A stretch of DNA of 33,224 nt from a virus (IMGVR_UViG_3300020045_005034:1-33224); one strand, 5' to 3'. Counted from the stretch's first letter, positions 6,705 to 30,201 are shown. Made by a program: numbers and translations. The notes: generated by a model from the letters alone, not told the origin.

Positions 6705-7040
6705 ATGTCTAAAATCACCATCACCTGGGCAGGCGCAGCATTGGTTCGTGCTATTAAAACAATGGCACAAGTTATTCTCAGTATGATTACTATCGGTGTA
6801 GCTATTGATGCTATTAACTGGAAGTATATTGTCTCAGTAGCTCTCACTGCGAGCATCTGTTCAATCCTTACTAGTCTTGCGGGCCTTCCTGAGGTTGGCT
6901 CGGACGGGGTTCTTAAGATTGATACCACCGGTCCGGTCGATGCATATTTGCTTAGCCTAGATACGCCACTTGAGGGACTTGCCTCGAAGAGTGTTGTCAA
7001 ATTGACAGTTGATCCGAACGCTATCCTCTCGCAGAAATAA
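6705..7040 (+). CDS. Holin, r1t family, with extra C-terminal soluble domain
   Basis: W..AA.VRAIKTMAQ...INW....S.......S.LTSLAGLPEV signature plus about 45 extra residues. Confidence 0.8.
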   Translation: MSKITITWAGAALVRAIKTMAQVILSMITIGVAIDAINWKYIVSVALTASICSILTSLAGLPEVGSDGVLKIDTTGPVDAYLLSLDTPLEGLASKSVVKLTVDPNAILSQK

Positions 7041-7057
7041 CTTACCCTATAATAGAA
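7029..7057 (+). promoter_or_regulatory. 29-bp phage promoter-like motif, copy 1
   Basis: TCGCAGAAATAACTTACCCTATAATAGAA. Confidence 0.85.
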
Positions 7058-7085
7058 TAAAAAGAAAGGGTAAGGACAAAAAATT

Positions 7086-7373
7086 ATGAACATTTTTAAA
7101 GAGAACAAGAAACATGGACTCGATGAGGAAATCTGTAGATTACAGGAAATAATGAAGTCAGTTGATCCAAAATCGAACGAGTATATTACTATAGCGAAAA
7201 ATCTAGAGACATTGTATTCGGCTAAATCAAAAGGCCGAGAAGGTACAGTAAAACTAGACACAATAGCTACAGGGATATTCGGATTGGTTGGGATCATATT
7301 GATAATTTATGGAGAAGAAACCAGAATTATAACATCGAAGGCGTTGGGTTTTGTACTTAAGGGGCGTGTGTAA
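7086..7373 (+). CDS. Cassette membrane protein
   Basis: C-terminal TM helix, between motif 1 and two hairpins. Confidence 0.8.
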   Translation: MNIFKENKKHGLDEEICRLQEIMKSVDPKSNEYITIAKNLETLYSAKSKGREGTVKLDTIATGIFGLVGIILIIYGEETRIITSKALGFVLKGRV

Positions 7374-7399
7374 AAACATGTCCTTTCCCCTTTGTAAAA

Positions 7400-7437
7400 G
7401 AGAGAAGTCGTATTAAAAACATGGCTTCTTCTTTTTT
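7400..7437 (+). terminator. Intrinsic terminator-like hairpin (a second hairpin lies at 7359-7386)
   Basis: AGAAGTCGT/ATGGCTTCT stem followed by T run. Confidence 0.6.
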
Positions 7438-7438
7438 C

Positions 7439-7467
7439 TCGCTTAAAAAACAACGGCTCTAATAGAA
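7439..7467 (+). promoter_or_regulatory. 29-bp motif, copy 2
   Basis: TCGCTTAAAAAACAACGGCTCTAATAGAA. Confidence 0.85.
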
Positions 7468-7541
7468 CTATATTTTAAAAGGTATCTTTATTAAGACGAA
7501 AGTAGTTTGATAACAGTAAAGAAAGCTTCGGCTTTCTTTTT
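7465..7541 (+). ncRNA. Candidate ~75-nt small RNA (ORF-less cassette)
   Basis: Bounded by motif 2 and a terminator. No ATG or GTG start and no good RBS inside. Confidence 0.5.
7518..7541 (+). terminator. Intrinsic terminator
   Basis: AAAGAAAGC-TTCG-GCTTTCTTTTT. Confidence 0.85.
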
Positions 7542-7546
7542 ATGAG

Positions 7547-7575
7547 TCGCAAGAAAAACAACCTCTATAATAGAA
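7547..7575 (+). promoter_or_regulatory. 29-bp motif, copy 3
   Basis: TCGCAAGAAAAACAACCTCTATAATAGAA. Confidence 0.85.
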
Positions 7576-7605
7576 TTAAACCAAAATTATAGGAGGATAT
7601 TTAAA

Positions 7606-7944
7606 ATGATCGTTAACATGAAAAACGCGACATGGAAAATGGATGATTATGAGAAGAGTTTAAAATCAGAAAAGAATAAGAAGAAAATTAGAAAGAACTT
7701 GAAACGAGTCAAGTTGATTGGTAAAGTATTTGCATTAGCAGCTACGAAATCAATGTTCAGCATAGAAACGCTAGGATTTGGAACAGCTTTAGGATTAGTC
7801 CAGGGATTGAAGTACGCAGGTAACTTCAAGAAAGGATTAAAAACTGGAGTGGTGACAGTAGCAGTTATAAGTGTTGTAACAGCGATTTCGACGGTAGCAA
7901 ATGCAATGCCATCGATCAATAAGATCGTTAACAGGGAAGATTAA
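7606..7944 (+). CDS. Cassette membrane protein
   Basis: AGGAGG RBS, basic N-terminus, hydrophobic Gly-rich helices. Confidence 0.8.
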   Translation: MIVNMKNATWKMDDYEKSLKSEKNKKKIRKNLKRVKLIGKVFALAATKSMFSIETLGFGTALGLVQGLKYAGNFKKGLKTGVVTVAVISVVTAISTVANAMPSINKIVNRED

Positions 7945-7961
7945 TAGTCTTCTCTTCTTTT
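7934..7961 (+). terminator. Intrinsic terminator overlapping stop codon
   Basis: GGGAAGATT-AAT-AGTCTTCTC plus T-rich tail. Confidence 0.7.
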
Positions 7962-7962
7962 C

Positions 7963-7991
7963 TCGCTTAAAAAACAAGGGTTATAATGAAA
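7963..7991 (+). promoter_or_regulatory. 29-bp motif, copy 4
   Basis: TCGCTTAAAAAACAAGGGTTATAATGAAA. Confidence 0.85.
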
Positions 7992-8021
7992 CCGAAAGGT
8001 TATCTTGAAGGGAGAATTAAT

Positions 8022-8321
8022 ATGAACAAAGTTAAAGAACTCTGGACAAATCACAAGAGAGAACTCGTAATCGCAGGTTGTATTATTGGAGGCGTAATTG
8101 TCGCCACAATCATTACACAGAAGATGAGTAAAAAAGCAATAGATTTGACAGGGGAATGTTTGATTCATTGGAAACCATCAGATGAACCGAAGTTTATCAA
8201 CTTAGAGCAAGTCAAAGAAATCTTAGATCTAAATGCAACGAATTCATCGATGTATGCAATATTCAGAGAAGGGGCAGATCCAAATGCCTATCAATGTATA
8301 TTGCTAACACCAAATGTATAA
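8022..8321 (+). CDS. Cassette single-pass membrane protein
   Basis: AAGGGAG RBS before ATG 8022, TM helix LVIAGCIIGGVIVATII. Confidence 0.8.
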   Translation: MNKVKELWTNHKRELVIAGCIIGGVIVATIITQKMSKKAIDLTGECLIHWKPSDEPKFINLEQVKEILDLNATNSSMYAIFREGADPNAYQCILLTPNV

Positions 8322-8340
8322 AGTTATATTTGAGGAGTCT

Positions 8341-8365
8341 GAGAGAGCTTAGGCTTTCTCTTTTT
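8341..8365 (+). terminator. Intrinsic terminator
   Basis: GAGAGAGC-TTAG-GCTTTCTC-TTTTT. Confidence 0.8.
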
Positions 8366-8366
8366 C

Positions 8367-8395
8367 TCGCTTAAAAAACAATGGCTATAATGAAA
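8367..8395 (+). promoter_or_regulatory. 29-bp motif, copy 5
   Basis: TCGCTTAAAAAACAATGGCTATAATGAAA. Confidence 0.85.
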
Positions 8396-8421
8396 CTAAT
8401 AAAAATTTAGGAGGAAAGAAA

Positions 8422-8616
8422 ATGAATACGACAGTAACAAAAATTCTAGTCATCATCGGAGCATGCACGGTAACTCAGCAGCTTGTGAATATCTTAGTAG
8501 ATATTACACGAGACAAAAAGGAACTGCGCAAGCGAGTAGACGAATTAGAAAGTGATAGTGAGATATTCAAAGAATTCATTCAAGAACATTTAGAAGTTCA
8601 TCAAGGGAAGGCCTAA
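8422..8616 (+). CDS. Cassette small protein (hydrophobic N-terminus plus coiled coil)
   Basis: AGGAGG RBS, 64 aa. Confidence 0.8.
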   Translation: MNTTVTKILVIIGACTVTQQLVNILVDITRDKKELRKRVDELESDSEIFKEFIQEHLEVHQGKA

Positions 8617-8634
8617 CAAGGTCTTCTTCTTTTT
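8604..8634 (+). terminator. Intrinsic terminator overlapping stop codon
   Basis: GGGAAGGCCT-AACA-AGGTCTTCTT-CTTTTT. Confidence 0.75.
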
Positions 8635-8649
8635 ACGAAAGGACAGCAA

Positions 8650-8766
8650 GTGAGTAAATTCTTAAATTATTGTGTTGACTATTATGAGATATTTGATGAT
8701 TGGCTCTATCGGACATTAACAAAATTGCTCGTACGTATATTTGACTTCGTAACCTCGCGTAAATAA
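8650..8766 (+). CDS. 38-aa hypothetical peptide
   Basis: GAAAGGA RBS, GTG start, stop inside motif 6. Confidence 0.45.
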   Translation: MSKFLNYCVDYYEIFDDWLYRTLTKLLVRIFDFVTSRK

Positions 8767-8783
8767 CAATGGCTATAATGAAG
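8755..8783 (+). promoter_or_regulatory. 29-bp motif, copy 6
   Basis: TCGCGTAAATAACAATGGCTATAATGAAG. Confidence 0.85.
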
Positions 8784-8854
8784 AAAAAGTTAGCTCAGTC
8801 GGTAGAGCGCACAGCAATAATTGTGAGGCATTAGTTCGAATCTAATACTTTTTC
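8784..8854 (+). ncRNA. tRNA-like cloverleaf with non-canonical 6-nt anticodon loop (isotype undeterminable)
   Basis: Acceptor AAAAAGT/ACTTTTT, D arm GCTC-AGTCGGTA-GAGC, anticodon arm CACAG-CAATAA-TTGTG, T arm ATTAG-TTCGAAT-CTAAT. No encoded CCA. Confidence 0.8.
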
Positions 8855-8889
8855 TTTTATATTTTTGAAAAAGGGGGGGGGGTACTAGA

Positions 8890-8982
8890 ATGGTTCGTAC
8901 GTACACTACACCAAGATGTCCGACATGTGGCTGGATCTGCTCGACTAAGTATTGTCAGAATTGTGGAGCAACAAGAAAGTAA
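8890..8982 (+). CDS. 30-aa Zn-ribbon micro-protein
   Basis: MVRTYTTPRCPTCGWICSTKYCQNCGATRK, with a G10 run in the RBS position. Confidence 0.6.
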   Translation: MVRTYTTPRCPTCGWICSTKYCQNCGATRK

Positions 8983-9035
8983 ATCCAAAATTTTCCCGGG
9001 TAAGAAAATCCTAAAAAACAAAGGAGAAAATCACT

Positions 9036-9182
9036 ATGCTACCACCAGTATTGGATGCTTCGATCCGACACCTATGTAGTAAACTAACAAAGGAAGAACT
9101 AACTAATTTAGTATTAACTCTAATGGAAGATGGGTTGCATTCGGCTGGAAGAAAACCAAATAAAAAGGAGCAATCACTATGA
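9036..9182 (+). CDS. 48-aa hypothetical protein
   Basis: AAGGAGAAAATCACTATG start, ATGA overlap with next gene. Confidence 0.6.
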   Translation: MLPPVLDASIRHLCSKLTKEELTNLVLTLMEDGLHSAGRKPNKKEQSL

Positions 9183-9343
9183 TTAAACTATCTGAACTGG
9201 CTCTCAATTGGATCTTAAAACGCGGTATCATATTTGATATCGAAAAGTTTGTCACCGACGTTGAAGTCCCTGAAACAAAAATCAAAGCTCATATCCAAGC
9301 CGAGCATGTTACTATAACACTTAAACAGAAAGAGGAGAATTAA
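9179..9343 (+). CDS. 54-aa hypothetical protein
   Basis: AAGGAGCAATCACTATG start. Confidence 0.65.
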   Translation: MIKLSELALNWILKRGIIFDIEKFVTDVEVPETKIKAHIQAEHVTITLKQKEEN

Positions 9344-9345
9344 GT

Positions 9346-9549
9346 ATGATTAAACCAACTAAAAAACAAATTGTAACAGTGGTTGGACTCATTTGTATTG
9401 GATATGTTATTTATAAGGTTGGTTATAAAAATGGGACTGTGAATGCATATGGGGATATTTGTTCAGTTGTAAGCAAAGAAAAGATCAGTAAATTCATATT
9501 CAAGAACTCAAAGAATAGTATTACTATCTTAATGCAGGAGGTAGTTTAA
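9346..9549 (+). CDS. Small single-pass membrane protein
   Basis: GAGGAG RBS, N-terminal TM helix. Confidence 0.7.
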   Translation: MIKPTKKQIVTVVGLICIGYVIYKVGYKNGTVNAYGDICSVVSKEKISKFIFKNSKNSITILMQEVV

Positions 9550-10025
9550 TGTTAGAAAATCTTCCACCATATACTGTTTGTGGAATTGATTTAAGCAATG
9601 CGCATGATTTCTCTATTTCTGATGAATTGTATGAGTTATGTATAAAACATAACACTGAAAAAAATATTTCCACCGAATCTATTATGAAGATACTTCATAG
9701 TCTTAATATTCATACAGCTGACGTATTATGGCATACCGATCCAAATATTTTTAAAAGAACCAAAGGTATTGGGAATAAACGCTATATAGTTGTTATGAAT
9801 ATGTGGAGAGAAGGCAAAGAAGTTCTTAGAAAAGAGCGTCAGGATAAACGTAAAGCCGGTAAACAAATAGTCGGCCCAAATGATATTGACCTCACGAGTA
9901 GTGAAGGTCGTCTATTGATGGCCACATTATCCATGTTATCAACCATTCCAATATATACCGATAAGACCCCAGAACAAATTATTGAACAGGTCAATATCCT
10001 ATCAAAAGAAATGTTTGATAAATAA
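9549..10025 (+). CDS. Hypothetical protein with HhH/RNAP alpha-CTD-like segment
   Basis: ILHSLNIHTADVL...DPNIFKRTKGIGNKRY resembles the alpha-CTD/HhH pattern. Confidence 0.5.
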   Translation: MLENLPPYTVCGIDLSNAHDFSISDELYELCIKHNTEKNISTESIMKILHSLNIHTADVLWHTDPNIFKRTKGIGNKRYIVVMNMWREGKEVLRKERQDKRKAGKQIVGPNDIDLTSSEGRLLMATLSMLSTIPIYTDKTPEQIIEQVNILSKEMFDK

Positions 10026-10040
10026 AAAGGAGGATTAAGT

Positions 10041-10358
10041 ATGAAAACAGACAAATTCAACTACATCGTTTCCCAGCAACTGATCAGAAGCACGGATGTC
10101 CTTTGCAATAAGGCGAAGGAATATGCTACCGAAGATCGACTGCACAATTTCAAAGTTGCTGCAGCAGTCCAGGGATGCACTCCAGTTCAAGCCCTTGCAG
10201 GTATGATGGCTAAACACACAGTCAGTGTCTATGACATGTGCCGAGGCGATGCATGGAATTTTCCAATTGATCTCTGGAATGAAAAACTCACCGATCATAT
10301 TAACTATTTGCTCTTGCTTAGGGCACTAATTGAAGAGCCAAAGGAGGATACAACGTGA
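10041..10358 (+). CDS. Conserved phage protein, possibly all-alpha nucleotide pyrophosphatase-like (DUF1599/Nmad1-like)
   Basis: KAKEYA..DRLHNFK...GMMAKH...EKLTDHINYLLLL pattern. Confidence 0.55.
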   Translation: MKTDKFNYIVSQQLIRSTDVLCNKAKEYATEDRLHNFKVAAAVQGCTPVQALAGMMAKHTVSVYDMCRGDAWNFPIDLWNEKLTDHINYLLLLRALIEEPKEDTT

Positions 10359-10450
10359 GCAGATTTGAATTCTATATTTATGTGATATGTATAAGCATCA
10401 TCATAACTTGTGGCATCAGGATTAGTTATTGTATACTTTCAGCACTTTAA
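10355..10450 (+). CDS. 31-aa hydrophobic peptide MSRFEFYIYVICISIIITCGIRISYCILSAL
   Basis: AAGGAGG RBS, GTGA overlap with the previous stop, paralog of 6012..6098. Confidence 0.65.
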   Translation: MSRFEFYIYVICISIIITCGIRISYCILSAL

Positions 10451-10470
10451 ATAAAAGGAGAAAATCACCA

Positions 10471-10695
10471 ATGATTGACTTCGACATGCGTAATCTCAAA
10501 GTTGGAGACACTGTCCTATTAGCCGAGCCAGGGCTTCATCACAAGAAAAGATGTATAATTATTGAGGCCTCAGAGACTAATGGGCTTCTACCAGTCAAAG
10601 TTAGGTTGGCCAATCCACATGCTGATTTTGGTTATGGTGTAACTGAGAAATGGGTTCCACGAATAGATTTATATTTAGTTGAGAATCATAAATAA
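10471..10695 (+). CDS. Small SH3/KOW-like beta-barrel protein
   Basis: RBS-supported ATG 10471, LKVGDTV...VKVRL...W pattern. Confidence 0.65.
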   Translation: MIDFDMRNLKVGDTVLLAEPGLHHKKRCIIIEASETNGLLPVKVRLANPHADFGYGVTEKWVPRIDLYLVENHK

Positions 10696-10709
10696 AAGGA
10701 GAAATCACT

Positions 10710-10922
10710 ATGAAACTTTTGACAGGGCATGAACTTCTTACCAAACTCCAAAATGGAGAAGATATCTCAAATGTCTATGTTACAAATACAACAGAAATAA
10801 AGGGCTCAAACAGTCAAATAGAAAGCGGTCGTGGATATCTTACACTTTTACCAGTTAAAGGAAATTTGTGTGTTGATTCGATTTTTTGTCCTACTTTGAT
10901 TATTATTGATATTTCAGAATAA
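10710..10922 (+). CDS. Hypothetical protein
   Basis: AAGGAGAAATCACTATG start. Confidence 0.7.
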   Translation: MKLLTGHELLTKLQNGEDISNVYVTNTTEIKGSNSQIESGRGYLTLLPVKGNLCVDSIFCPTLIIIDISE

Positions 10923-10938
10923 AAAGGAGAAAATCACT

Positions 10939-11148
10939 ATGAAAAAAAATCAACCAATCAAACAATCCACCTTGAAGAACAAATTGGTCGCAGTTTTAAT
11001 GCTTATATTTAGTGGTATGGCCGTTCTCATTGATCACGACATTACGATTCTTATATTTCTTACACCTATTAGTTTGTTATTGTTCTTCTATAAGTATCCG
11101 ATCATTGGGAAACAAGATGAGGATTTTCCTTGGGGTGGTAAAAAATGA
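10939..11148 (+). CDS. Small two-TM membrane protein
   Basis: RBS-supported ATG 10939, two hydrophobic helices. Confidence 0.7.
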   Translation: MKKNQPIKQSTLKNKLVAVLMLIFSGMAVLIDHDITILIFLTPISLLLFFYKYPIIGKQDEDFPWGGKK

Positions 11149-11411
11149 GTAGCTCAAGACCACTTTCTACTACATTAAAAATATTAGAGATTCTTGAACA
11201 GGGATTTGAGATCCGAGTGTGGGAAGACACATTAAATGACTTATTTACTCCAAGTATTGCCATTGATATTTCTGATATGAATACTAGGCCAATAAATCAT
11301 CACAGACAAGTAGTTTTTATGAGTGATCTAATTGATTCTGATGATCCGGATAATTTTTTAGTAAATATTTTACAACAGATGACTATAACTCTTAAAAGAA
11401 TGAGGAAGTAG
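11145..11411 (+). CDS. Hypothetical protein
   Basis: ATGA-coupled 88-aa ORF. Confidence 0.7.
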   Translation: MSSSRPLSTTLKILEILEQGFEIRVWEDTLNDLFTPSIAIDISDMNTRPINHHRQVVFMSDLIDSDDPDNFLVNILQQMTITLKRMRK

Positions 11412-11421
11412 GAAAAACAAG

Positions 11422-12027
11422 ATGTCTCGCCATATTCTAACTTCTGAGCAATTACAGTTTCTTAAAGATCATGTTGAAGGTCTCCACAATAAAAAACTCA
11501 CCGAGATGTTCAACGCTACCTTTGGAACTAATTTGCAATGGGAGACTATTAAGGCTTTCAAGAAATACTATAAACTAAAAAGCGGAATTGATCCTAAATT
11601 GAAACCCGGTAATGACCTGTGGAAGAGCGTAAAAAATCCTAAAAGCCGAGCCAATTGCACAAGTTATTCTGCAGGCCATACCTCGGCTACACAGAAGCCT
11701 ATAGGGTCCGAACGAACAGACTCAGATGGTTATATTTGGGTTAAGATTGCTCAACCAAGGGTATGGAGAGAGAAGTCACGAGTAGTCTGGGAGGAAACTA
11801 ATGGTAAGATTCCTACTGGTAGCATCGTCATATTCGGAGACCGTAACAAGCAAAACTTCGATCTCACTAATCTCATATTGGTTACTCGTAGACAATTGGC
11901 CCAACTTAATAAGAACCATCTAATACAATGTGATGCTGATTTGACTAGGTCTGGAATTATTATAGCAGATATTCTAAACAAAATAGGAGAAATCAAACAT
12001 GAAAAACACCTTAGGCGATCTCAATAA
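11422..12027 (+). CDS. HNH_3-type endonuclease-like protein (degenerate His motifs)
   Basis: PIGSER...DGY..VKI....W..K.R.VWE..NG.IP.G..VIF.D.NK.N..L.NL.LVTR pattern. Confidence 0.75.
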   Translation: MSRHILTSEQLQFLKDHVEGLHNKKLTEMFNATFGTNLQWETIKAFKKYYKLKSGIDPKLKPGNDLWKSVKNPKSRANCTSYSAGHTSATQKPIGSERTDSDGYIWVKIAQPRVWREKSRVVWEETNGKIPTGSIVIFGDRNKQNFDLTNLILVTRRQLAQLNKNHLIQCDADLTRSGIIIADILNKIGEIKHEKHLRRSQ

Positions 12028-12235
12028 CTATCTCTTTTCTAGCCTTGAGCGACTTGACAATGAGGATCTAAGCAATGAGGAGCTCGAGAAAGAAATCAGT
12101 CGATCAAGAGCCATTACGAATGTGGCATCATCTATCATTGCTAATGGCGCCCTCGTACTTAAGGCTAAGATACAGTATGAGGAGAATATGAGGGCCTCAA
12201 ACCAATCTATGCCATCAATGCTTGAGGGCGGCTGA
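11999..12235 (+). CDS. Conserved phage protein often paired with the HNH-like gene
   Basis: MKNTLGDLNNYLF..LERL..EDL..EEL.KEI.RS.AI..VA..II.NG.LVLKA pattern. Confidence 0.8.
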   Translation: MKNTLGDLNNYLFSSLERLDNEDLSNEELEKEISRSRAITNVASSIIANGALVLKAKIQYEENMRASNQSMPSMLEGG

Positions 12236-12236
12236 T

Positions 12237-12389
12237 ATGCTAAAACAGAAGACTGGATGCGGTTTACCTAAGAAGAAGTGTGACGGCATTTGGATGATGT
12301 CTCAAACTGGTCGGCATCCATGGGATCTCATATTAGCCGAGCGATGTAGGCGATGTTTTCTGATGACAAGAAAGGGTAAGACAAAATAA
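12237..12389 (+). CDS. 50-aa Cys-containing hypothetical protein
   Basis: Fills the gap exactly between neighbouring genes. GAGGG RBS. Confidence 0.5.
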   Translation: MLKQKTGCGLPKKKCDGIWMMSQTGRHPWDLILAERCRRCFLMTRKGKTK

Positions 12390-12391
12390 CA

Positions 12392-12577
12392 ATGTCAAAT
12401 ATTTGTGACAACTTTTGTGATTGCGATTTAGTAGTTAACAAGTATTCTGGAGTCTCTGGTAAGATCATAGCTATCTATATGCATAAGGATAGAGCTTATT
12501 TAGATGTACGTACGATTGATGGTGCATATTACAAGACCCCAGCAATCAACTGGGAGAGAGTAGGAGAAGATGCCTAG
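12392..12577 (+). CDS. Small SH3-like protein (paralog of 20581 and 20773)
   Basis: YLDVR....YY.TP..NW motif. Confidence 0.7.
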   Translation: MSNICDNFCDCDLVVNKYSGVSGKIIAIYMHKDRAYLDVRTIDGAYYKTPAINWERVGEDA

Positions 12578-12842
12578 ACATGTTTATATTTGTTCGATAT
12601 GCGGTAGAGAATATGATGAAGTAACCACTATCTGTGATTGCGAGCTATTAGGTAGGCCTAAACAGAAGATGGTAGCTAAAGGTATTTCTTTGTATATTAC
12701 TTTTGACCCCGGATCATCAAATGGCGATCGACCCTGTGCATCTATACATATTCAAAACAAATACAACTTTAATTTTGTAAGAAGTCTTTATGGCGAAGAT
12801 GCTGAAGAGTTATATTCATTACTAGATGTGGAGGAAGAATGA
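12570..12842 (+). CDS. Hypothetical protein with N-terminal Zn-finger
   Basis: YICSICG...CE pattern, AGGAG RBS. Confidence 0.7.
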   Translation: MPRHVYICSICGREYDEVTTICDCELLGRPKQKMVAKGISLYITFDPGSSNGDRPCASIHIQNKYNFNFVRSLYGEDAEELYSLLDVEEE

Positions 12843-13102
12843 TGTCTAAATCTCAATATTATCAGACCTGTGAAAAATGTGGTGCTAACTTAGATCCAGG
12901 TGAACGCTGCGATTGTGGAAACAATCAAGATGTCCTTTATATTTGTGACCGTAAGAAGTGTAAGAACTGTACGCATCACTGCAATCACACAGCAGATATT
13001 ACGCATGCTGTCAATTTTAAACTTCATATGGGCGCTTTCTATATGGAGCAGTTTGGTGATGTTGAGCCTGTGTATCCGGAGGAGGTAGAAGAGGATGGTT
13101 GA
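12839..13102 (+). CDS. Cys-rich Zn-finger protein
   Basis: CEKCGANLDPGERCDC plus YICDRKKCKNC...CNHT. Confidence 0.75.
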   Translation: MMSKSQYYQTCEKCGANLDPGERCDCGNNQDVLYICDRKKCKNCTHHCNHTADITHAVNFKLHMGAFYMEQFGDVEPVYPEEVEEDG

Positions 13103-13310
13103 TCGGTGTATATCCTGTGGTTTATATGATCCAAATCTTGGACATTATATTTGTCAATCGTGTATCAAAAAAGGACGCCTCCTAATGAAGGATCGCAACC
13201 TATTAATTTGTGAGGTTGATTCTAAAGTTATAGTTGTTGGAGCTTTGACCAAAGAACAGTGTAAAACAGTTATCCATATTTTAGAAAGGACGGTTAATAC
13301 AAATGTCTAA
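13095..13310 (+). CDS. Small Zn-finger protein
   Basis: CISCG...ICQSC. Confidence 0.7.
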   Translation: MVDRCISCGLYDPNLGHYICQSCIKKGRLLMKDRNLLICEVDSKVIVVGALTKEQCKTVIHILERTVNTNV

Positions 13311-13686
13311 AGGATTGAGTCTCGAAGATTTCAAAAAGCAACTTGATAGTGATGCTCAGCAAACAGTAATTACTCAGAAGGGGCAGATTGAAGAGTTAGA
13401 AAAAAAGATCGAACGGCAGCAAAGGAAAATTTACCAGCAGAATGAAGAAGCATATTACCTCTTCAAACGCTGCAGCGCATTGACATCAAACACTATGTGT
13501 CAATATTGTGGTATCTCACAAAGATGTCATGATGTGTGCTCTATATTTGATGCTAAATTGAAGGGTAAACATGCTGAAACTAGTGTTATTGATGATTGTC
13601 ATCTGATGGATAATCCTGGTGCTAGATTAGAAATGTATGCAGCACTTGGTGGGTTGTTGAAGTCGCAGGAAAAACAATGCCTCTAA
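13303..13686 (+). CDS. Coiled-coil/Cys-containing hypothetical protein
   Basis: 127-aa ORF, stop lies in motif 7. Confidence 0.7.
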   Translation: MSKGLSLEDFKKQLDSDAQQTVITQKGQIEELEKKIERQQRKIYQQNEEAYYLFKRCSALTSNTMCQYCGISQRCHDVCSIFDAKLKGKHAETSVIDDCHLMDNPGARLEMYAALGGLLKSQEKQCL

Positions 13687-13691
13687 TAGAA
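13663..13691 (+). promoter_or_regulatory. 29-bp motif, copy 7
   Basis: TCGCAGGAAAAACAATGCCTCTAATAGAA. Confidence 0.85.
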
Positions 13692-13721
13692 GCCAAAAGG
13701 CAATTTTAGGAGGAAATCACC

Positions 13722-13955
13722 ATGAAGAATGAAGATTTGATCGTCAGCGCATTAGGTATCATTGGACTCATTATAGTAGTTCCCATAGTAATAAGGGGAA
13801 CACTCATAGGAGTATCATTGGTAGGTAGTTGTGTTGAGCAAGGAAGAAACACTATGAAGTTCCACAAAGAAATGAAAAAGGGCATAAAAGAAGGAAAGAT
13901 AGTCAAAATTAATGGCGAGTATTACAATGTAGTACAGACCATTGAGGAAGAGTAA
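13722..13955 (+). CDS. Cassette membrane protein
   Basis: AGGAGG RBS, N-terminal TM helix. Confidence 0.8.
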   Translation: MKNEDLIVSALGIIGLIIVVPIVIRGTLIGVSLVGSCVEQGRNTMKFHKEMKKGIKEGKIVKINGEYYNVVQTIEEE

Positions 13956-13970
13956 TCTTCCTTTCTTTTT
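13945..13970 (+). terminator. Intrinsic terminator with stop codon in GTAA loop
   Basis: AGGAAGA-GTAA-TCTTCCT-TTCTTTTT. Confidence 0.8.
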
Positions 13971-13973
13971 CAG

Positions 13974-14002
13974 TCGCTTAAAAAACAATGGCTCTAATAG
14001 AA
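13974..14002 (+). promoter_or_regulatory. 29-bp motif, copy 8
   Basis: TCGCTTAAAAAACAATGGCTCTAATAGAA. Confidence 0.85.
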
Positions 14003-14075
14003 GGGTATGCTAGTTTAAAAAGGTAAAACACTCACAACTGTGTGAGAGAATTCGGTTCGAATCCGCGGGCTCTTC
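14000..14075 (+). ncRNA. Second, more degenerate tRNA-like cloverleaf
   Basis: Closing stem GAAGGGT/GCTCTTC, D arm GTTT-AAAAAGGTA-AAAC, anticodon arm CTCAC-AACTGT-GTGAG, T arm CGG-TTCGAAT-CCG. No CCA. Confidence 0.7.
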
Positions 14076-14100
14076 TTTTATATTTTTGAAAGGAGTATTT

Positions 14101-14253
14101 ATGATCACCGAGACAGAAAAGGAAAAGCTATTTGAGGAGCTTGGTATAAAATCCCCATCAAAAGTATATTTTGAAATGCTAAATGAAGTTAGAAAGGAGC
14201 AGCCAAATGCCAATCGAATCGAGAATGCAGAAGTTAATAACAATTCTGAATGA
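14101..14253 (+). CDS. 50-aa hypothetical protein
   Basis: GAAAGGAG RBS, ATG 14101, overlaps the ligase start. Confidence 0.55.
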   Translation: MITETEKEKLFEELGIKSPSKVYFEMLNEVRKEQPNANRIENAEVNNNSE

Positions 14254-15448
14254 AGCATGTAGGGATTATTATTCTGGAGTTGATGAGTCACCGATGTCAG
14301 ATGCTCAGTATGATCGATATTTGACAGAGTTAAAAGCTCTTGAGGCTGAGGCAGGCTATAAACTAGCTGACTCACCAACAGTTAAAGTAGGTTAAGAGGA
14401 GACGGACGATAAGATTAAGCATTATGCTCCGATCCTTTCTTTAAGAGACACTAAAAGTGTTGATGAACTTCTACATTTCTTAGGGCAGGAAGAGGGAATC
14501 TTATCTTGGAAACTCGATGGTATAAGTATTGTCTTATATTATCAGAACGGGCATCTCGAACGAGCAGTTAGCAGAGGCGATGGGTTTTATGGTAAGGATA
14601 TTACGAAAAATGTTATGCTTATGCGTGATGTGCCTAAGACTATAGATAGTAAAAGCACTCTTATTGTCCGGGGTGAAGGTTGTATATCCTTAGACGATTT
14701 CGCCGATCTCAAAGCTACTAAAGAAGGTGAAGGTTATAAAAATCCACGTAATCTAGCGGCAGGACTTATTAATAGCACTCGAACCACAAGCTCACTGCTT
14801 AGATACATGACTTTTGTAGCACATTCAATCATATTTGTTGCTGGGAGAGGGCGTAATCTAACTACTCGATCCGAGCAATTTGAGTATTTAGAGAAACTTG
14901 GTTTTCGGGTTGTACCACATATTAAGGTGGTCAACTATATTCTCAAGCACCAAATTGAGACTATGACGGGTATGATCGAGAACTTCGAATTCCCTGTAGA
15001 TGGGCTTGTTCTGGCACTTAATGACTTAGTACATAGCAACTCACTAGGCAGTACTATGAAATTCCCTAGGGATAGTATGGCTTTCAAATGGCCAGATGTC
15101 TCAGCTATGACGAACGTAACTGGTATGAAATGGAGCGTTAGTCAAACGGGTCTTATTACACCAGTAGTCTTATTTGAGCCTATCCAACTCGAAGGTACTA
15201 CTGTCAAGCAGGCTAACCTGCATACACTGAAAGTATTTGAGGAGCTTGGTATTGGTATTGGCGATATGATTGAGATTTATAAGGCTAATAAGATTATCCC
15301 GGAGGTTGCTGAGAACTATACCCGCTCCGACACAGAAGATTATCCACGTAAATGTCCTGTATGCAAGCAGGAGACCACGGTTGTAGCCAATGATAAAACT
15401 AAAAAGTTATATTGCTACAATTGCGCAGTGAAAGGGGGAGGCACATGA
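14207..15448 (+). pseudogene. ligA: NAD+-dependent DNA ligase homolog with in-frame TAA at 14393-14395, lacking HhH and BRCT domains
   Basis: Domain Ia YY....PMSDAQYD..SPT.KVG*, then in the same frame H..P.LSL, WKLDG, SRGDG..G.DIT, VRGE, NPRN.AAG, DGLV, AFKW, OB fold TGLITPV, and Zn finger CPVC..CYNC. Confidence 0.85.
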
Positions 15449-16266: not shown

Positions 16267-16284
16267 TTAAAGGAGTAAATCACC

Positions 16285-17478: not shown

Positions 17479-17507
17479 TCGCAGAAAAAACAATTACTAT
17501 AATAGAG
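17479..17507 (+). promoter_or_regulatory. 29-bp motif, copy 9
   Basis: TCGCAGAAAAAACAATTACTATAATAGAG. Confidence 0.85.
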
Positions 17508-17783: not shown

Positions 17784-17812
17784 TCGCTTAAAAAACAATG
17801 CCTATAATAGAA
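17784..17812 (+). promoter_or_regulatory. 29-bp motif, copy 10
   Basis: TCGCTTAAAAAACAATGCCTATAATAGAA. Confidence 0.85.
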
Positions 17813-20769: not shown

Positions 20770-20772
20770 ACG

Positions 20773-20991: not shown

Positions 20992-21380
20992 TGGATGAGC
21001 AAAAGATTCTTAAAAAATTGCACCAAAATTTGGATTGGTCACTACGAGGCGCATGTGATAACAATCCTCAAGCGGCGGTTGCTCTAAAACTCATATCTGA
21101 TTCCATATTGAGTGTTATGAAAGAATGTGAGATGGAGAAAACTGTTACAGAATTAAATGTGAGTGGGATGCCTGTACCTAAGATATATAGTACTCCACCA
21201 GAGGTTGATAACCAACAAATTGTATTTATTGAGCGTAGAAGGATTGCTGGAACGAGAGATTATGAAGAAGTCTTTTCAACAATTGGTCAATGTCCATCAT
21301 GTGAGGAAACCTTAAAGCGTACCGACCATAAGAACTACTGTGGTAATTGTGGGCAAGCAATTAGATGGACACGCTACTAA
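20988..21380 (+). CDS. Protein with C-terminal Zn ribbon
   Basis: CPSC...YCGNCGQAIRW. Confidence 0.75.
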   Translation: MMDEQKILKKLHQNLDWSLRGACDNNPQAAVALKLISDSILSVMKECEMEKTVTELNVSGMPVPKIYSTPPEVDNQQIVFIERRRIAGTRDYEEVFSTIGQCPSCEETLKRTDHKNYCGNCGQAIRWTRY

Positions 21381-21381
21381 G

Positions 21382-21410
21382 TCGCTAAAATAACAACTGT
21401 TCTAATGAAG
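21382..21410 (+). promoter_or_regulatory. 29-bp motif, copy 11
   Basis: TCGCTAAAATAACAACTGTTCTAATGAAG. Confidence 0.8.
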
Positions 21411-21443
21411 CTAAGCTTCTATATTTTGAAAGGAAGAAACACT

Positions 21444-22391: not shown

Positions 22392-22473
22392 ATTTCGTCG
22401 GTTCCGGTAACTTTTACAGAGACATATTTGACTATCCGCATTTATTTACTTACTTTTGAAAGGAATCATAATT

Positions 22474-22671
22474 ATGCCGGATGAACTGATTGTAAAAGCT
22501 GAGTTAATCTGCAGAGATCTTCGAGCAAAAGAATTTGCTTATAAGGATTATCCTAATGCTGGTTCGGACGTTGATATTTCTTCAATGGCTAAGGACTCTG
22601 CAGATGTGATCGAGGGACTTATATCTACAATTGATGAACTTAATGATTATATTAGGTATAAGGGAGACTGA
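22474..22671 (+). CDS. Hypothetical protein
   Basis: GAAAGGA RBS before ATG 22474. Confidence 0.65.
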   Translation: MPDELIVKAELICRDLRAKEFAYKDYPNAGSDVDISSMAKDSADVIEGLISTIDELNDYIRYKGD

Positions 22672-27500: not shown

Positions 27501-28469
27501 GGCACATCAACCTATACATCCAAAGATTTAGCTGATGCATTAAAGACTGTTATCAATTCTGTCTATGGACTGACCTCTGCAAAGTTTGAGAATAAATTTA
27601 AAGATCCACGTAATAAGGATAATATTGTTGCTAAACGTGGAGCCTTATTTATGATTGATCTAAAACATGCAGTTCAAGATCAGGGGTTTAAAGTTGCACA
27701 TATTAAAACAGACTCAATTAAGATTCCAAATGCTACTCCTGAAATTATTAAGTTTGTTATGGAATTTGGTAAAAAGTATGGCTATGAGTTTGAGCATGAG
27801 GATACATATTCTAAGTTCTGTTTAGTTAATGATGCAGTTTACATTGCCAAAACAGATAAAGGCGAATGGACTGCAACAGGAGCTCAATTTGCACAACCAT
27901 ATGTGTTTAAGACTCTATTCTCAAAAGCTCCACTAGAGTTCAGTGATATGTGTGAGACCAAAACAGTAACATCTGCATTATATCTCGACATGAATGAAAG
28001 CCTAGAGGCAGATCAGCATAACTATATTTTCATAGGAAAAGCCGGTTCATTCTGCCCAGTTGTTAAAGATGCTGGTGGTGGAATACTTCTTAGAGAAAAA
28101 GATGGGAAGTATTATGCGGCTACAGGAACAAAGGGGTATCGGTGGCTTGAAGCCGAAATGGTCAAGGGTTTAGGAAAGGAAGACTATATTGACCGAGGTT
28201 ACTATAATGAACTTGTCGATGATGCAGTGAGTAACATTTCTAAGTATGGCGATTTTGAATGGTTTATATCTAACACCGAAGAAACAAAACTCGAAGAAAC
28301 ACCAATAGGGTTTAATGATATTCCACCTCCATGGTTTGCACCATGTGGAAAAGATATCCTATGCTTTGAGTGCGAAGACTATGATGTTAATATGCCATTC
28401 GGACCAGGTTGCATGAAGGGTTATAGTATACCCTTACTTAAAGGAGAGAACACCAATGATAAAGAATAA
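24525..28469 (+). CDS. Fused SF3 (D5-like) helicase / AEP primase / family B DNA polymerase
   Basis: Walker A GEAGSGKS. AEP motifs VIDFD and SKSGSGIHLHY. Exonuclease motifs FDIE, GFN..YD and YCENDV. Polymerase motifs DVASMHP, K..INSVYG and IKTDS. Confidence 0.92.
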   Translation: MDFYQIVEKTSKGSLEIYPDFKACRSKDLMIRGKAFYAIWDQEKHIWSTDEYDVQRLVDKELEEYRDERQKTWAGKIEVKSMLSFSSNMWKNYRNFLREMSDCSKQLDANLTFLNTDAKKTDYISRRLSYPLEEGPIVAYDELMSTLYIPSEREKLEWAIGAIISGDAKHIQKFIVLYGEAGSGKSTFLNIVQKLFDGYYTAFEAKALTGNNNSFSTEPFKANPLVAIQHDGDLSKIEDNTKLNSIISHEEMTMNEKYKPSYTARSNAFLFMGTNKPVKITDAKSGIIRRLIDVMPSGEKIPSKKYHALMGQIDFELGAIAFHCLQVYHRLGKNYYGSYRPLQMIYQTDVFFNFVESCYHTFREQDGAALSQAYEMYKTYCDEALVDFKLPRHKFREELKSYFKSFHEVIRINDKQVRSYYGGFLASKFQIIDRPKEEKPYSLVIDSNESLLDKVLEECPAQYATEKETPEKKWSEIKTKLSDINTHKIHYVQPPKNHIVIDFDLKDQSGKKSLEKNLEEASKWPTTYAEYSKSGSGIHLHYIYDGDVDKLSRVHSEGIEIKVFVGQASLRRKLTKCNTSPVATISTGLPLKGEKMINFEGVKNEKALRTLILKNLNKEVHAGTKPSIDFIWQILEDAYISGMKYDVTDLRPKILAFANNSSNQPEYCIKLVGKMHFASDEPSISTEEYKSDELIFFDIEVFPNLFILVWKAADKKPVRMINPSPKEIGELLGFKLIGFNNRRYDNHILYARYIGWTNEELYKLSQKIINDSRNALFGEAYNLSYTDVYDFASAANKKGLKKFEIELGIHHQELGLPWDKEVPEELWNKVAEYCENDVVATEIVFHHLSGDWAARQILAALSGLTVNDTTNMHSTKIIFGDEKNPQSQFIYTDLSVMFPGYSFEGGKSTYRGEEPGEGGYVYAETGMYTDVAVLDVASMHPTSTEQLNMFGPYTKIFSEIKNGRVYIKRKEFDKVRSILNGKLIPFIEKLEAGTSTYTSKDLADALKTVINSVYGLTSAKFENKFKDPRNKDNIVAKRGALFMIDLKHAVQDQGFKVAHIKTDSIKIPNATPEIIKFVMEFGKKYGYEFEHEDTYSKFCLVNDAVYIAKTDKGEWTATGAQFAQPYVFKTLFSKAPLEFSDMCETKTVTSALYLDMNESLEADQHNYIFIGKAGSFCPVVKDAGGGILLREKDGKYYAATGTKGYRWLEAEMVKGLGKEDYIDRGYYNELVDDAVSNISKYGDFEWFISNTEETKLEETPIGFNDIPPPWFAPCGKDILCFECEDYDVNMPFGPGCMKGYSIPLLKGENTNDKE

Positions 28470-28953
28470 TATTACAATTGAAAATGCTCGAATCGGATTC
28501 CGTAATTTCAGAGGCAAAGGTGGCCAATACAATCCTGAGGGAAGACGTAACTTCTGTGTCTTTCTCGAATCAGATCTAGCCAAGACTCTTGAGCAGGATG
28601 GTTGGAATGTTCGATGGTTAGAGCCACGAGATGAACAGGAAGATGCACAAGCATATTTACAGGTAGCAATAAGCTACACAAATATTCCACCAAAGATTAT
28701 CATGATCACAAGTCATGGTAAAACCATTCTCGATGATGAGTCCATCGGTCTTCTGGATACTGCAGAGATCTCTGAAATTGATCTTATCATTCGTCCTTAT
28801 AATTGGACACTTCATGCTGGAACAAAGAATGAAAAGAATGGTGTCAAAGCGTATGTCAAATCGATGTATGTAACGATTGCTGAAGACGAGTTTGAAAAGA
28901 AATATTATAATGTTCCCACAGAAGGTATCATAGAGGAGCCTGATGGCGATTAA
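28456..28953 (+). CDS. Putative single-stranded DNA-binding protein
   Basis: FRNF.G....YN..G.RNF, IRPY.W...G.KAY...MYV, acidic tail, located between polymerase and helicase. Confidence 0.7.
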   Translation: MIKNNITIENARIGFRNFRGKGGQYNPEGRRNFCVFLESDLAKTLEQDGWNVRWLEPRDEQEDAQAYLQVAISYTNIPPKIIMITSHGKTILDDESIGLLDTAEISEIDLIIRPYNWTLHAGTKNEKNGVKAYVKSMYVTIAEDEFEKKYYNVPTEGIIEEPDGD

Positions 28954-30166
28954 TCTCTATGAGCATCAAAAAGATGCTATAGGAAAACTGCGAACCGGCT
29001 CCATCTTAGTTGGTGGGGTCGGCTCCGGTAAATCCTTAACTGCTCTGGCATATTACTTTACAGTCGAATGTGATGGTAAGATCAAGACCAATGGCGAGAG
29101 TGGGTATTCGCCTATGAGAAAACCTAAAGATCTATATATCATCACAACTGCTCGAAAACGTGATTGCTTAGAATGGGATAAAGAGTGCGCTCACTTTCTA
29201 CTCTCTACTAAGAAAGAATTAAGTATCGGTGGAGTTGGACTATTTATTGATTCTTGGAACAACATTGCAAAGTATGCAAGTGTCAAGAATGCCTTCTTCA
29301 TATTTGATGAACAGCGAGTTGTAGGGAACGGTGTTTGGGTAAAATCATTTCTTAAGATTACAAAAAACAATAGCTGGATTTTATTGAGTGCTACTCCTGG
29401 AGATACATGGTTAGATTATATTCCGGTCTTCATTGCTAATGGATGGTATAAGAATCGAACAGAATTTATTCATCGACATGTTGTATATAACAACTTTTCT
29501 AAATTTCCAAAAGTCGATCATTTTATTGAGACTGGTAGATTGAGTAAACTTCGAGAAGCAGTCATGGTTCATATGCATTATAAGAAGCGAACTATAGCTC
29601 ATGACAAGAATGTAGTTGTTGATTTTAACAGAGAAATATTTGATACTATTTTAGTTAAGAGATGGCATGTGTATGAGCAGCGTCCAATAAAAGATATTGG
29701 TGAACTTTGTTATGTAATGCGGAAAGCAGTCAATAGCGATCCAAGTAGATTAAAGGTGGTAGCTGAACTTTTAGAAAAGCATCCTCGCATAATCATATTT
29801 TACAATTTTAATTATGAACGAGATTTATTATTGAAGTTAGGAGAAGATTTAAAAATTCCAACAGCACAATGGAATGGCCACAAACATGAGCAGATACCAG
29901 ACACTAAAGAATGGATGTATATTGTTCAGTATGCAGCTGGCGCTGAAGGTTGGAATTGTACAGAAACTAATACAATCATATTCTTCTCTCAGAATTATTC
30001 TTACAAAGCAACCATTCAAGCAGCTGGTAGAATCGATAGATTGAACACACCATTCACAGATTTATTCTATTACTACCTAAGGTCAAATTCATTTATTGAT
30101 TTAGCCATAAGTAAAGCTTTGAAGAATAAGAAAAACTTTAATGAACATCGTTTTATGTCAGCCTAA
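28943..30166 (+). CDS. Superfamily 2 DNA helicase
   Basis: LYEHQ, GGVGSGKS, FDEQR, LSATPG, GAEGWN, QAAGRIDR. Confidence 0.9.
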   Translation: MAINLYEHQKDAIGKLRTGSILVGGVGSGKSLTALAYYFTVECDGKIKTNGESGYSPMRKPKDLYIITTARKRDCLEWDKECAHFLLSTKKELSIGGVGLFIDSWNNIAKYASVKNAFFIFDEQRVVGNGVWVKSFLKITKNNSWILLSATPGDTWLDYIPVFIANGWYKNRTEFIHRHVVYNNFSKFPKVDHFIETGRLSKLREAVMVHMHYKKRTIAHDKNVVVDFNREIFDTILVKRWHVYEQRPIKDIGELCYVMRKAVNSDPSRLKVVAELLEKHPRIIIFYNFNYERDLLLKLGEDLKIPTAQWNGHKHEQIPDTKEWMYIVQYAAGAEGWNCTETNTIIFFSQNYSYKATIQAAGRIDRLNTPFTDLFYYYLRSNSFIDLAISKALKNKKNFNEHRFMSA

Positions 30167-30172
30167 AGCTCC

Positions 30173-30201
30173 TCGCAGAAATAACAGGGCCTCTAATAGA
30201 A
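30173..30201 (+). promoter_or_regulatory. 29-bp motif, copy 12 (heads nuclease-RNAP operon)
   Basis: TCGCAGAAATAACAGGGCCTCTAATAGAA. Confidence 0.85.

Follow-up and report, generated by a model that had tools for sequence, protein, structure and literature searches.

T7-type promoters are gap-free elements of fixed length that occur in many copies and have an A/T-rich box that immediately precedes the purine-rich start; T7 RNA polymerase (RNAP) is a right-hand polymerase. Single-chain two-barrel RNAPs are found in other phages. YonO of the Firmicutes phage SPbeta is a DNA-dependent enzyme of this type, about 100 kDa in size, by which the late genes are transcribed as a single operon; in the part of the paper drawn on here, its promoter sequence was left undetermined (PMC5467207). 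Thermus phage P23-45 has two RNAPs, one of them fused to the tape measure protein (TMP), and in the available part of that preprint gp96 and gp64 are likewise single-chain two-barrel enzymes, serving pre-early and early genes with private multi-copy motifs (bioRxiv 2022.12.01.518664). For the "Phage 1706" family of YonO-like proteins (phrog_4291), to which the polymerase studied here belongs, only polymerase activity has been predicted; the accessible portions of these texts describe neither a promoter nor recognition residues, and the word "promoter" has 0 occurrences in that of the second (PMC2919709; bioRxiv 842583). An intergenic motif in the Gordonia phage Vardy (cluster DJ) has been read as a sigma-70 −10 promoter (PMC9671010), and a 32-bp repeat in the cluster AU phage Giantsbane as a recombination boundary, in a text with 0 occurrences of "promoter" and "polymerase" (bioRxiv 2020.01.10.891226). 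As far as the available texts go, neither reading draws a link to a phage RNAP (PMC9671010; bioRxiv 2020.01.10.891226).

The window analysed here, a 33,224-nucleotide stretch of viral DNA (IMGVR_UViG_3300020045_005034), is part of a phage in the 1706/Pepy6/AU/BI/DJ/oengus group. An earlier note on this DNA had reported twelve gap-free, plus-strand copies of a 29-bp motif with fixed spacing. Its consensus, TCGC-N2-RAAWAAC-N5-YTMTAAT-RRAR, used as a pattern, found exactly those 12 sites on the + strand and none on the − strand. With up to 3 mismatches allowed the count stayed at 12, against a mean of 0.15 and a maximum of 1 in 100 dinucleotide shuffles. A position weight matrix scored the copies at 32–44 bits (24–43 when leaving one out) and the next best site at 5.0, so that there is no 13th copy in the window. 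The hexamer was TATAAT in 7/12 copies and TCTAAT in 5/12, as counted before. By position and sequence, this is the same element as that of Vardy and Giantsbane, with 10 copies in Vardy and 10 in the AU phage Gordon, on which the cluster AU count was made in place of Giantsbane. The similar actinophage repeats which the earlier note mentioned are in print, in the parts of these publications available, under other readings. A full-text literature search, covering main texts other than the 2008 phage 1706 paper and the 2011 Pepy6/Poco6 paper, found no link between motif and RNAP. The 2011 paper reportedly describes repeats between small genes. The copies and the features around them are:

7029..7057, + strand: motif copy 1 (TATAAT), overlapping the end of a holin gene; putative +1 at 7054, 32-nt leader, 95-aa ORF at 7086
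7439..7467, + strand: motif copy 2 (TCTAAT), followed by ~80 nt without a ribosome-binding site plus start, a stretch that closes with a hairpin and T-run ahead of copy 3
7547..7575, + strand: motif copy 3 (TATAAT); 34-nt leader, 112-aa ORF at 7606
7963..7991, + strand: motif copy 4 (TATAAT), with a terminator-like hairpin (7933–7955) just 5′; upstream of an ORF ending at 8321
8367..8395, + strand: motif copy 5 (TATAAT), with a terminator-like hairpin (8341–8360) just 5′; 30-nt leader, 64-aa ORF at 8422
8755..8783, + strand: motif copy 6 (TATAAT), predicted driver of the tRNA-like RNA
8780..8857, + strand: tRNA-like RNA with no readable anticodon (ARAGORN; Rfam RF00005, 51.6 bits)
13663..13691, + strand: motif copy 7 (TCTAAT); 34-nt leader, 77-aa ORF at 13722
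13974..14002, + strand: motif copy 8 (TCTAAT), 3′ of a terminator-like hairpin (13944–13963)
13999..14076, + strand: second, degenerate cloverleaf RNA, its closing stem running from motif position 26; folding z only −1.38
17479..17507, + strand: motif copy 9 (TATAAT); 36-nt leader, 59-aa ORF at 17540
17784..17812, + strand: motif copy 10 (TATAAT), 3′ of a terminator-like hairpin (17737–17766); 28-nt leader, 94-aa ORF at 17837
21382..21410, + strand: motif copy 11 (TCTAAT); 37-nt leader, DUF6353 gene at 21444
30173..30201, + strand: motif copy 12 (TCTAAT), first element of the endonuclease-exonuclease-RNAP operon; hairpin from motif position 26 (30198)
30251..31067, + strand: genes of an endonuclease (phrog_93) and an exonuclease (phrog_3953), 3′ of copy 12 and 5′ of the RNAP gene
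31073..33223, + strand: predicted single-chain two-barrel RNAP (phrog_4291), truncated after 717 aa where the contig ends
31370..31384, + strand: codons E100–R104, in the recognition helix of the second N-terminal helix-turn-helix (HTH)
32603..32617, + strand: catalytic DFDGD motif (D511–D515), within the RNAP gene

The copies thus precede small-gene and DNA-copying operons, copy 11 being the final one before the primase-polymerase, SSB and helicase genes. The RNAP gene matched phrog_4291 with an E-value of 1.9e-284, and both DFDGD and N-terminal HTHs were present. Homologues were found in 250 phage records; complete relatives have 869–1013 aa and a C-terminal HTH, and the catalytic Asp residues in D511–D515 were invariant among 40 aligned sequences. 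The model of a complete relative with 67% identity had a fold like QDE-1 (E 3.7e-10; Z 16.0, rmsd 5.1, 388 aligned), RDR2, P74-26 gp62 and P23-45 gp64 (gp64/gp62: Z 11.9–12.9, rmsd 4.8–5.0, about 360 aligned). With its DxDGD motif and family profile match, and with the fold modelled for the relative, the window gene is a predicted two-barrel RNAP. The N-terminal model had no PDB match at E ≤ 0.001, giving only weak winged-helix matches, and the N-terminal sequence profile hit the lambda repressor HTH (E 6e-4), ranked below stronger low-complexity helical matches. Compared with P23-45, one enzyme was found here, the HTH domains are fused to it, and the motif stands before its own operon.

A related motif was found in 27/27 genomes chosen by gene homology, at 324 sites, all 324 in the orientation of the RNAP gene. 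The seed patterns fixed C13, T22, T25 and purines at 26–28, so that part of the conservation seen at these positions beyond the window is built in. A copy stood ahead of the RNAP operon in 21/27 genomes, as copy 12 does in the window. In contrast to the late role of YonO, the motif did not occur between TerL and TMP (0/269 sites, 24 genomes), nor did 14 loci show it before late genes: the region downstream of the RNAP at these loci lacked a full motif, and its single sigma-70-like match was intragenic. Next to the presumed cos site, a hairpin was considered as a motif site and rejected, its loop being only loosely like the upstream half of the motif. Searching with the motif first, 14 of 15 near-complete records encoded phrog_4291, and the fifteenth ends just past the helicase, before the RNAP position. 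Conservation of the motif spans hosts from two phyla and phage GC contents of 32–61%. The motif has the marks of a phage-RNAP promoter: it is multi-copy, co-oriented, tied to one expression class and co-occurs with an RNAP gene.

An alignment scan of genome contigs gave 303 relatives, mostly in Clostridia MAGs and with 43–54% identity, and a single-protein scan of genome contigs gave none. Clostridia genome assemblies held many of the relatives, in part on contigs of 180–430 kb, and oengus is a prophage. At 43–54% identity, the Clostridia MAG relatives were too distant for host assignment, which was discarded. In IMG/VR we estimated about 4,700 matching stretches, ~87% of those checked being true relatives.

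A rival reading, close to that published for Vardy, would make the motif a host sigma-A promoter with TATAAT as its −10 box; the upstream boxes would then be bound by an activator or repressor of the phage, which might be the HTH portion of the RNAP protein itself. Transcription from sigma-A promoters starts about 6–7 nt past the hexamer. A start at this usual spacing, at motif positions 31–33, would cut ribosome-binding sites and the acceptor stems of tRNA-like genes. Among the 211 sites having a called start, 25 had a ribosome-binding site beginning at motif positions 27–31, and for these the mean anti-SD pairing was −10.8 kcal/mol with an RNA start at 26 and −2.7 with a start at 32. A GGAG core at 28–32 together with an ATG occurred at 29/324 sites (shuffle mean 1.3, maximum 5). 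Of 18 tRNA-like genes 3′ of a copy, 14 start at positions 27–31, and the stems of 10 reach exactly to 26. In the window, position 1 of the tRNA-like RNA at 8780..8857 is motif position 30 and its closing stem extends to position 26, the putative +1; its folding z was −2.67 counted from 8780 and 0.06 from 8786. The cloverleaf at 13999..14076 was absent from the ARAGORN and Rfam calls. Stems of at least 7 bp through position 28 were found in 70/108 operon copies (shuffle mean 7.6). Their start lay at 26–28 in 59 of the 70, the edge at 26 being partly built in, as T25 is unable to pair with the U-tract and G26 stands opposite U in 17/19. Since ribosome-binding sites, tRNA-like 5′ ends and RNA stems begin 1–6 nt 3′ of the hexamer, which speaks indirectly against the sigma-A spacing, the RNA likely starts at the first purine immediately 3′ of TAAT.

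The hexamer itself speaks on both sides. TATAAT was the commonest form (156/324), TANNNT fitted 228/324 sites, and some genomes had all or nearly all TATAAT, so that host sigma-A might fire some copies. In addition, the RNAP gene lies 3′ of a copy, and a host start would supply the first enzyme; YonO, in the part of its paper drawn on here, transcribes late and not early genes (PMC5467207). On the other side, the A at position 21, the −11A of a sigma-A reading, was present at 237/324 sites (7/12 in the window) and missing at 87/324, including 15/15 in oengus. An extended −10 TG occurred at 8/324 sites. The absence of TTGACA at −35 spacing, claimed before, was borne out: with a spacer of 16–18 nt it was found in 0/12 window copies, and over all sites the best match never exceeded 4/6 (33/324 sites). 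A sigma-70 scan of 6500–22500 gave 54 matches against a shuffle mean of 53.9, with no motif copy among them. The earlier note had five copies losing the −11A; the A is indeed absent from TCTAAT, but the hexamer is probably not at −12..−7, and the loss is probably a sign that something other than sigma reads the motif, rather than damage to a −10 box. Taken as the whole explanation, a host sigma-A promoter seems to us very unlikely.

The covariation of motif and RNAP HTH, a check suggested by the earlier note, gave a signal of limited statistical power, with exceptions. The discovery rows were obtained by dropping 17/150 loci (core score <11) and removing near-identical rows (144 to 121). Among 465 conserved RNAP columns, E100 (p 1.6e-9) tracked the CG of the upstream box best and R104 (8e-7) second best, with 7 changes on the tree. 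The best column in five neighbouring proteins (547 columns) reached 3.5e-5, in a comparison made without the polymerase and without the further candidate binders phrog_4079, phrog_4695 and phrog_4678, which had too few variant rows. In the 121 rows, [ED]xxxR and CG were both kept in 109 and both lost in 8, with the residues only in 3 and CG only in 1. Box switches ran through whole genomes (TTAC in 9/11 copies; TCAC in 6/7; TCAC in 8/10). Against this, phage 1706 kept SESSVR with CG in 1/12 copies, and one genome (G026) lacked both residues and still had TCGC in 7/11 copies. Independent pairs on well-supported branches numbered 5, too few to reach p < 0.05. Replication on fresh loci gave p 8e-4 when rows were dereplicated at 95% (69 rows) and p 0.16 at 80% (56 rows), at low power and with 75/182 low-scoring loci left out; CG was absent from 8/55 intact rows, and the 10 variant rows belonged to two lineages that resemble those of the discovery rows. 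Together, these patterns suggest that the second HTH of the RNAP likely contacts the upstream CG box via E100 and R104. In favour of the sigma-A reading, covariation speaks for binding and not for catalysis.

The same results bear on the reading given for Giantsbane, a repeat serving only as a recombination boundary for shuffling small gene cassettes. Gene translocations and deletions there are, in the available text, confined to a repeat-flanked cassette (bioRxiv 2020.01.10.891226), and in our window single-gene units are separated by motif copies. However, conservation is columnar with free spacers, and not the contiguous identity favoured by homologous recombination; a copy precedes the conserved RNAP operon in most genomes, and both the start geometry and the covariation would be left unexplained. 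Shuffling can also arise as a by-product of promoter-gene-terminator units, and we give this reading hardly any credence.

Four independent lines, namely the start geometry, the conservation across two phyla, the motif-first records with an RNAP gene and, more tentatively, the HTH covariation, support the claim of the earlier note and lead us to regard the motif, with good confidence, as the promoter at which the phage's single-chain two-barrel RNAP, which is possibly virion-borne, starts early/middle transcription; the function is inferred from sequence. With +1 at motif position 26, TCGC would lie at −25..−22 and AC at −14/−13. The A/T-rich TNTAAT at −6..−1 would be the melting region, followed by the purine-rich start, while the second HTH (E100, R104) would touch the upstream CG box. 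Such an architecture resembles that of T7-type promoters, but the enzyme here has the two-barrel form and apparently relies on HTH domains.

Copy 12, upstream of the RNAP's own operon, suggests positive feedback, and because a copy heads that operon, the first enzyme would have to come from the virion or from weak host transcription. We see the chances of a virion supply as about even. In a variant compatible with the phage-RNAP promoter and differing in the starting step, host sigma-A would weakly fire the TATAAT-type copies to give the first RNAP, which would then use all copies, and the enzyme would not be in the virion. The relatives on Clostridia assembly contigs and the oengus prophage fit this, as induction has to begin with a step driven by the host. 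P23-45 gp64, moreover, serves early genes as a two-barrel RNAP outside the virion in the available part of its description (bioRxiv 2022.12.01.518664). Yet the position-21 A was most often missing from the copies heading the RNAP operon (14/22 where the exonuclease gene was at most 700 nt away vs 73/302 elsewhere; p 2e-4, kinship of genomes ignored). Also, the RNAP homologue in the phage 1706 record, orf75, was labelled "structural protein" by the depositors, a label repeated in the note on Pepy6 gp106. The 2008 paper on phage 1706 is said to have used virion mass spectrometry. We hold the host-driven start to be a serious possibility, though we would lean against it.

A stronger form of the phage-RNAP promoter reading, which we offer tentatively and rate somewhat short of an even prospect, is that one virion-carried chain of ~900 residues does the work of core RNAP and sigma. 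Its HTH, with an acidic residue and an Arg, would read CG at about −24; the chain would melt −6..−1 and start at the next purine. The natural box variants TCAC, TTAC and TCGT would then already be a recognition code. The system would be host-independent, shared by thousands of contigs and common to phage contigs of Actinomycetota and Bacillota hosts.

The finding bears on the way in which single-chain two-barrel polymerases locate their promoters with no sigma factor to guide them. A very large RNAP family gains a predicted promoter, a predicted start site, two candidate reading residues and natural switch variants. If true, it would correct the published readings of the motif as a sigma-70 promoter or a recombination boundary. 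The promoter could help to account for the spread of one low-GC phage lineage over two phyla, and would offer a compact orthogonal expression system.

Twelve gap-free + strand copies of a 29-bp motif (TCGC-N2-RAAWAAC-N5-YTMTAAT-RRAR, positions 1–29) were confirmed in place in the window, and this consensus, scanned on both strands, matched exactly those twelve sites. Tolerating three mismatches again gave 12 matches (0.15 expected from shuffles), and in a PWM scan of the window the copies scored 32–44 bits, the next-best site 5.0. The hexamer was TATAAT in seven copies and TCTAAT in five, and 0/12 had a -35 box at 16–18 nt, both as first described. Eight copies had a ribosome-binding site (RBS) and an ORF 28–53 nt downstream, and one further copy preceded an ORF with a weaker RBS. 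Terminator-like hairpins lay directly upstream of four copies, two copies headed tRNA-like RNAs, and the last headed the operon of the predicted single-chain two-barrel RNA polymerase (RNAP). The motif is real and family-wide, and on sequence grounds is most likely the promoter of this RNAP. That reading, proposed in the earlier note, is supported by the putative start-site placement, poor sigma-A fit, co-orientation and, as a lead, residue covariation.

The window is the entire 33,224-base record. Its gene order is tail, holin, many small genes, DUF6353 genes, primase-polymerase, SSB, helicase, endonuclease, exonuclease and RNAP. Individual features were:

1–3060: unlike the remainder, with a 272-aa ORF without assignment, a gene for a peptidase M15, GC skew below zero at 2001–3000 and only short ORFs at 2250–3060; possibly a foreign or mis-joined piece
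7464–7546, +: downstream of motif copy 2, ~80 nt that lack an RBS–start pair and close with a hairpin and T-run; perhaps a small RNA, or a unit that has lost its gene
14246–15448, +: NAD-dependent DNA ligase gene with one in-frame TAA near the 5′ end, the ORF stopping after the OB-fold and zinc-finger region; a broken gene or assembly error
15445–16266 and 21444–22391: two DUF6353 paralogues
16525–17064, 18599–19276 and 19487–19870: three genes sharing a phrog_4079 C-terminal domain
31073–33223, +: RNAP gene, last in the window, 717 aa, cut off, phrog_4291 match (E 1.9e-284)

The predicted model of a complete RNAP relative (67% identical) matched QDE-1, RDR2, P74-26 gp62 and P23-45 gp64. Homologues of the phrog_4291 gene were present in 250 phage records, from Arthrobacter, Gordonia, Streptomyces, Lactococcus, Curtobacterium, Microbacterium, Rhodococcus and Faecalibacterium phages. 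The group is the supercluster of bioRxiv 842583; the accessible text of that preprint ascribes to the protein a DxDGD motif and terminal helix-turn-helices (HTHs), states that it “could” be a polymerase, and has 0 occurrences of the word “promoter”. Past the window end, the next gene after that for the RNAP encodes 80 aa in 104 or more of 121 rows and in the cultured phages checked (e.g., directly after 13240 in locus L013), and its product is a candidate RNAP subunit. Beyond this small gene, loci L013, L049, L058, L357 and others had a conserved G-run/C-run hairpin adjoining the presumed cos site, then a second conserved block. The hairpin loop sometimes resembled the upstream half of the promoter motif.

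Scanning with one PWM per genome, we found the motif in 27/27 genomes (the window, 14 IMG/VR records and 12 cultured phages), at 6–26 copies each and 324 in total. The weakest accepted site scored 24 bits and the best rejected 14. A looser seed was applied to phage 1706 and the relatives P092 and G010, because their upstream box differs. All 324 sites were co-oriented with the RNAP gene. Where a genome had both TerL and TMP as landmarks (24 genomes), 0/269 sites fell between the two genes, and in 21/27 genomes a copy lay ≤1.3 kb upstream of the exonuclease gene. So that contigs would not be chosen through the RNAP gene, IMG/VR was also searched by DNA pattern alone. From the first 80 loci listed we took 36 longer contigs, 24 of which encoded phrog_4291, including 14 of the 15 that were ≥90% complete; the sequence of the remaining one ended just past the helicase. 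Taken alone, this co-occurrence indicates no more than shared descent. The 113-kb genome of Arthrobacter phage Paella (W12) had 33 forward matches at 37649–109766, mostly in a dense array. Locus L431 (1–1600, −; relative G072), with the RNAP helix SASTVR, carried a variant motif with hexamer AATAAT and an upstream box other than TCGC, in four to five copies according to the repeat table.

Similar repeats in related actinophages, mentioned in the earlier note, are indeed in print: a 50-bp motif of Gordonia phage Vardy was interpreted as a sigma-70 promoter (PMC9671010), and a 32-bp repeat of cluster AU, in the part of the preprint available, as a recombination boundary (bioRxiv 2020.01.10.891226). 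In favour of a sigma-A promoter, 228/324 hexamers still fit TANNNT. The would-be -11A (position 21) was A in 237/324 sites, and in 0/15 of phage oengus. C13, T22 and T25 were retained in 323, 323 and 319 of 324 sites, respectively, a conservation partly built in outside the window because the seeds fixed these columns; within the window they were kept in 12/12 copies vs 7/12 for the position-21 A. An extended -10 TG occurred in only 8/324 sites, and the best -35 match never exceeded 4/6 in the 324 sites. Most likely, judging by these profiles, the motif is not a sigma-A promoter.

Sigma-A starts RNA ~6–7 nt past the hexamer, which would be motif position 32. Three types of feature begin before that point. 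The RBS began at positions 27–31 in 25 of the 211 sites with a called start, where mean RBS pairing energy was -10.8 kcal/mol for a start at 26 vs -2.7 kcal/mol at 32; a start at 30 leaves 20/25 of these RBSs usable. GGAG at 28–32 plus ATG was found in 29/324 sites (1.3 in shuffles). A tRNA-type T-arm lay downstream of 18/324 sites; 14/18 of these tRNA-like RNAs begin at 27–31, and 10/18 stems reach exactly position 26. The RNA at window 8780 had a z of -2.67 when folded from position 26, against 0.06 for a fold begun at position 32. In operon copies, i.e., those heading the endonuclease-exonuclease-RNAP operon, a stem of ≥7 bp ran through position 28 in 70/108 (shuffle mean 7.6), beginning at 26–28 in 59/70. 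These stems set a limit on the start rather than its exact position, because pairing with a U-tract has to end before T25 and the base opposite G26 is mostly U. Positions 26 and 27 were purines in 323/324 sites. We infer +1 at position 26 or 27, which would place the hexamer at -6 to -1. The tRNA-like RNAs directly behind motif copies (window 8780–8857 and 13999–14076) had odd or unreadable anticodon arms. The same placement was seen in the relatives G001, G003, G005, G006, G009, G013, G015, G019, G020, P092, Pepy6, Vardy and Gordon, and these RNAs are possibly decoys or non-coding RNAs.

In an alignment of 27 RNAPs, an altered upstream box and an altered helix N[ED]SSVR occurred in the same lineages. 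The operon copy was located in 150 loci from motif positions 8–29 only. Of these, 17 with weak sites and the near-duplicates were left out; together with the window and 12 cultured phages, this made 121 rows. E100 and R104, on the recognition helix of the second N-terminal HTH (HTH2), and the CG of the TCGC box were kept in 109 rows; residues and CG were both lost in 8, only the residues were kept in 3 and only the CG was kept in 1. Residue loss took 7 changes on the catalytic-core tree. These residues ranked first and second of 465 conserved RNAP columns in all three row selections, and 547 columns of five neighbouring proteins gave nothing below 3.5e-5. When the N-terminal region of the window's RNAP itself was modelled (pLDDT 86), both lay on the third helix of an HTH. 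Across all copies, the box was TTAC in 9/11 (G068), TCAC in 6/7 (G069) and 8/10 (G010), and TCGT in 7/8 (G076, an EG variant); in these four relatives the switch is genome-wide. There were two exceptions: relative G026 lacks both residues, yet has TCGC in 7/11 copies, and 1706 has both, yet CG in 1/12. Another 211 fresh loci, with no clearly new lineages, gave the same direction (variant rows without CG, 10/10); the operon copy lacked CG in 8/55 rows with intact residues. On well-supported branches there were 5 independent pairs, a number at which significance is out of reach. As the hypothesis arose from the same data, the covariation counts as a strong lead and falls short of proof.

HTH2 of the RNAP would bind the CG box at about -24; the enzyme would then open the A/T-rich box at -6 to -1 and begin RNA at the first purine beyond it. 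Early proteins and small RNAs would be made from short promoter-gene-terminator units; through the last copy, the RNAP would feed back on its own gene. The position-21 A was missing most often in operon copies (14/22 vs 73/302 elsewhere), and its absence there would exclude host sigma-A from the feedback loop. The first RNAP molecule may be supplied by the virion: 1706 orf75 is labelled “structural protein” in GenBank EU081845, a label repeated for Pepy6 gp106. In temperate members, induction would need a host-driven first step.

As far as the accessible parts of the sources go, the name “1706 family” for a group of YonO-like proteins dates from 2010 (PMC2919709), YonO transcribes late genes, with its promoter sequence not established (PMC5467207), and in P23-45 two enzymes of this type work with early motifs of their own (bioRxiv 2022.12.01.518664). 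The accessible text of PMC13313380, PMC7302621 and PMC5883640 yielded no discussion of the motif, and a literature search, with most subscription papers outside its reach, found no link between motif and enzyme. Motif and enzyme are each already in print, separately; the putative start site and the candidate reading residues make promoter recognition by such enzymes directly testable.
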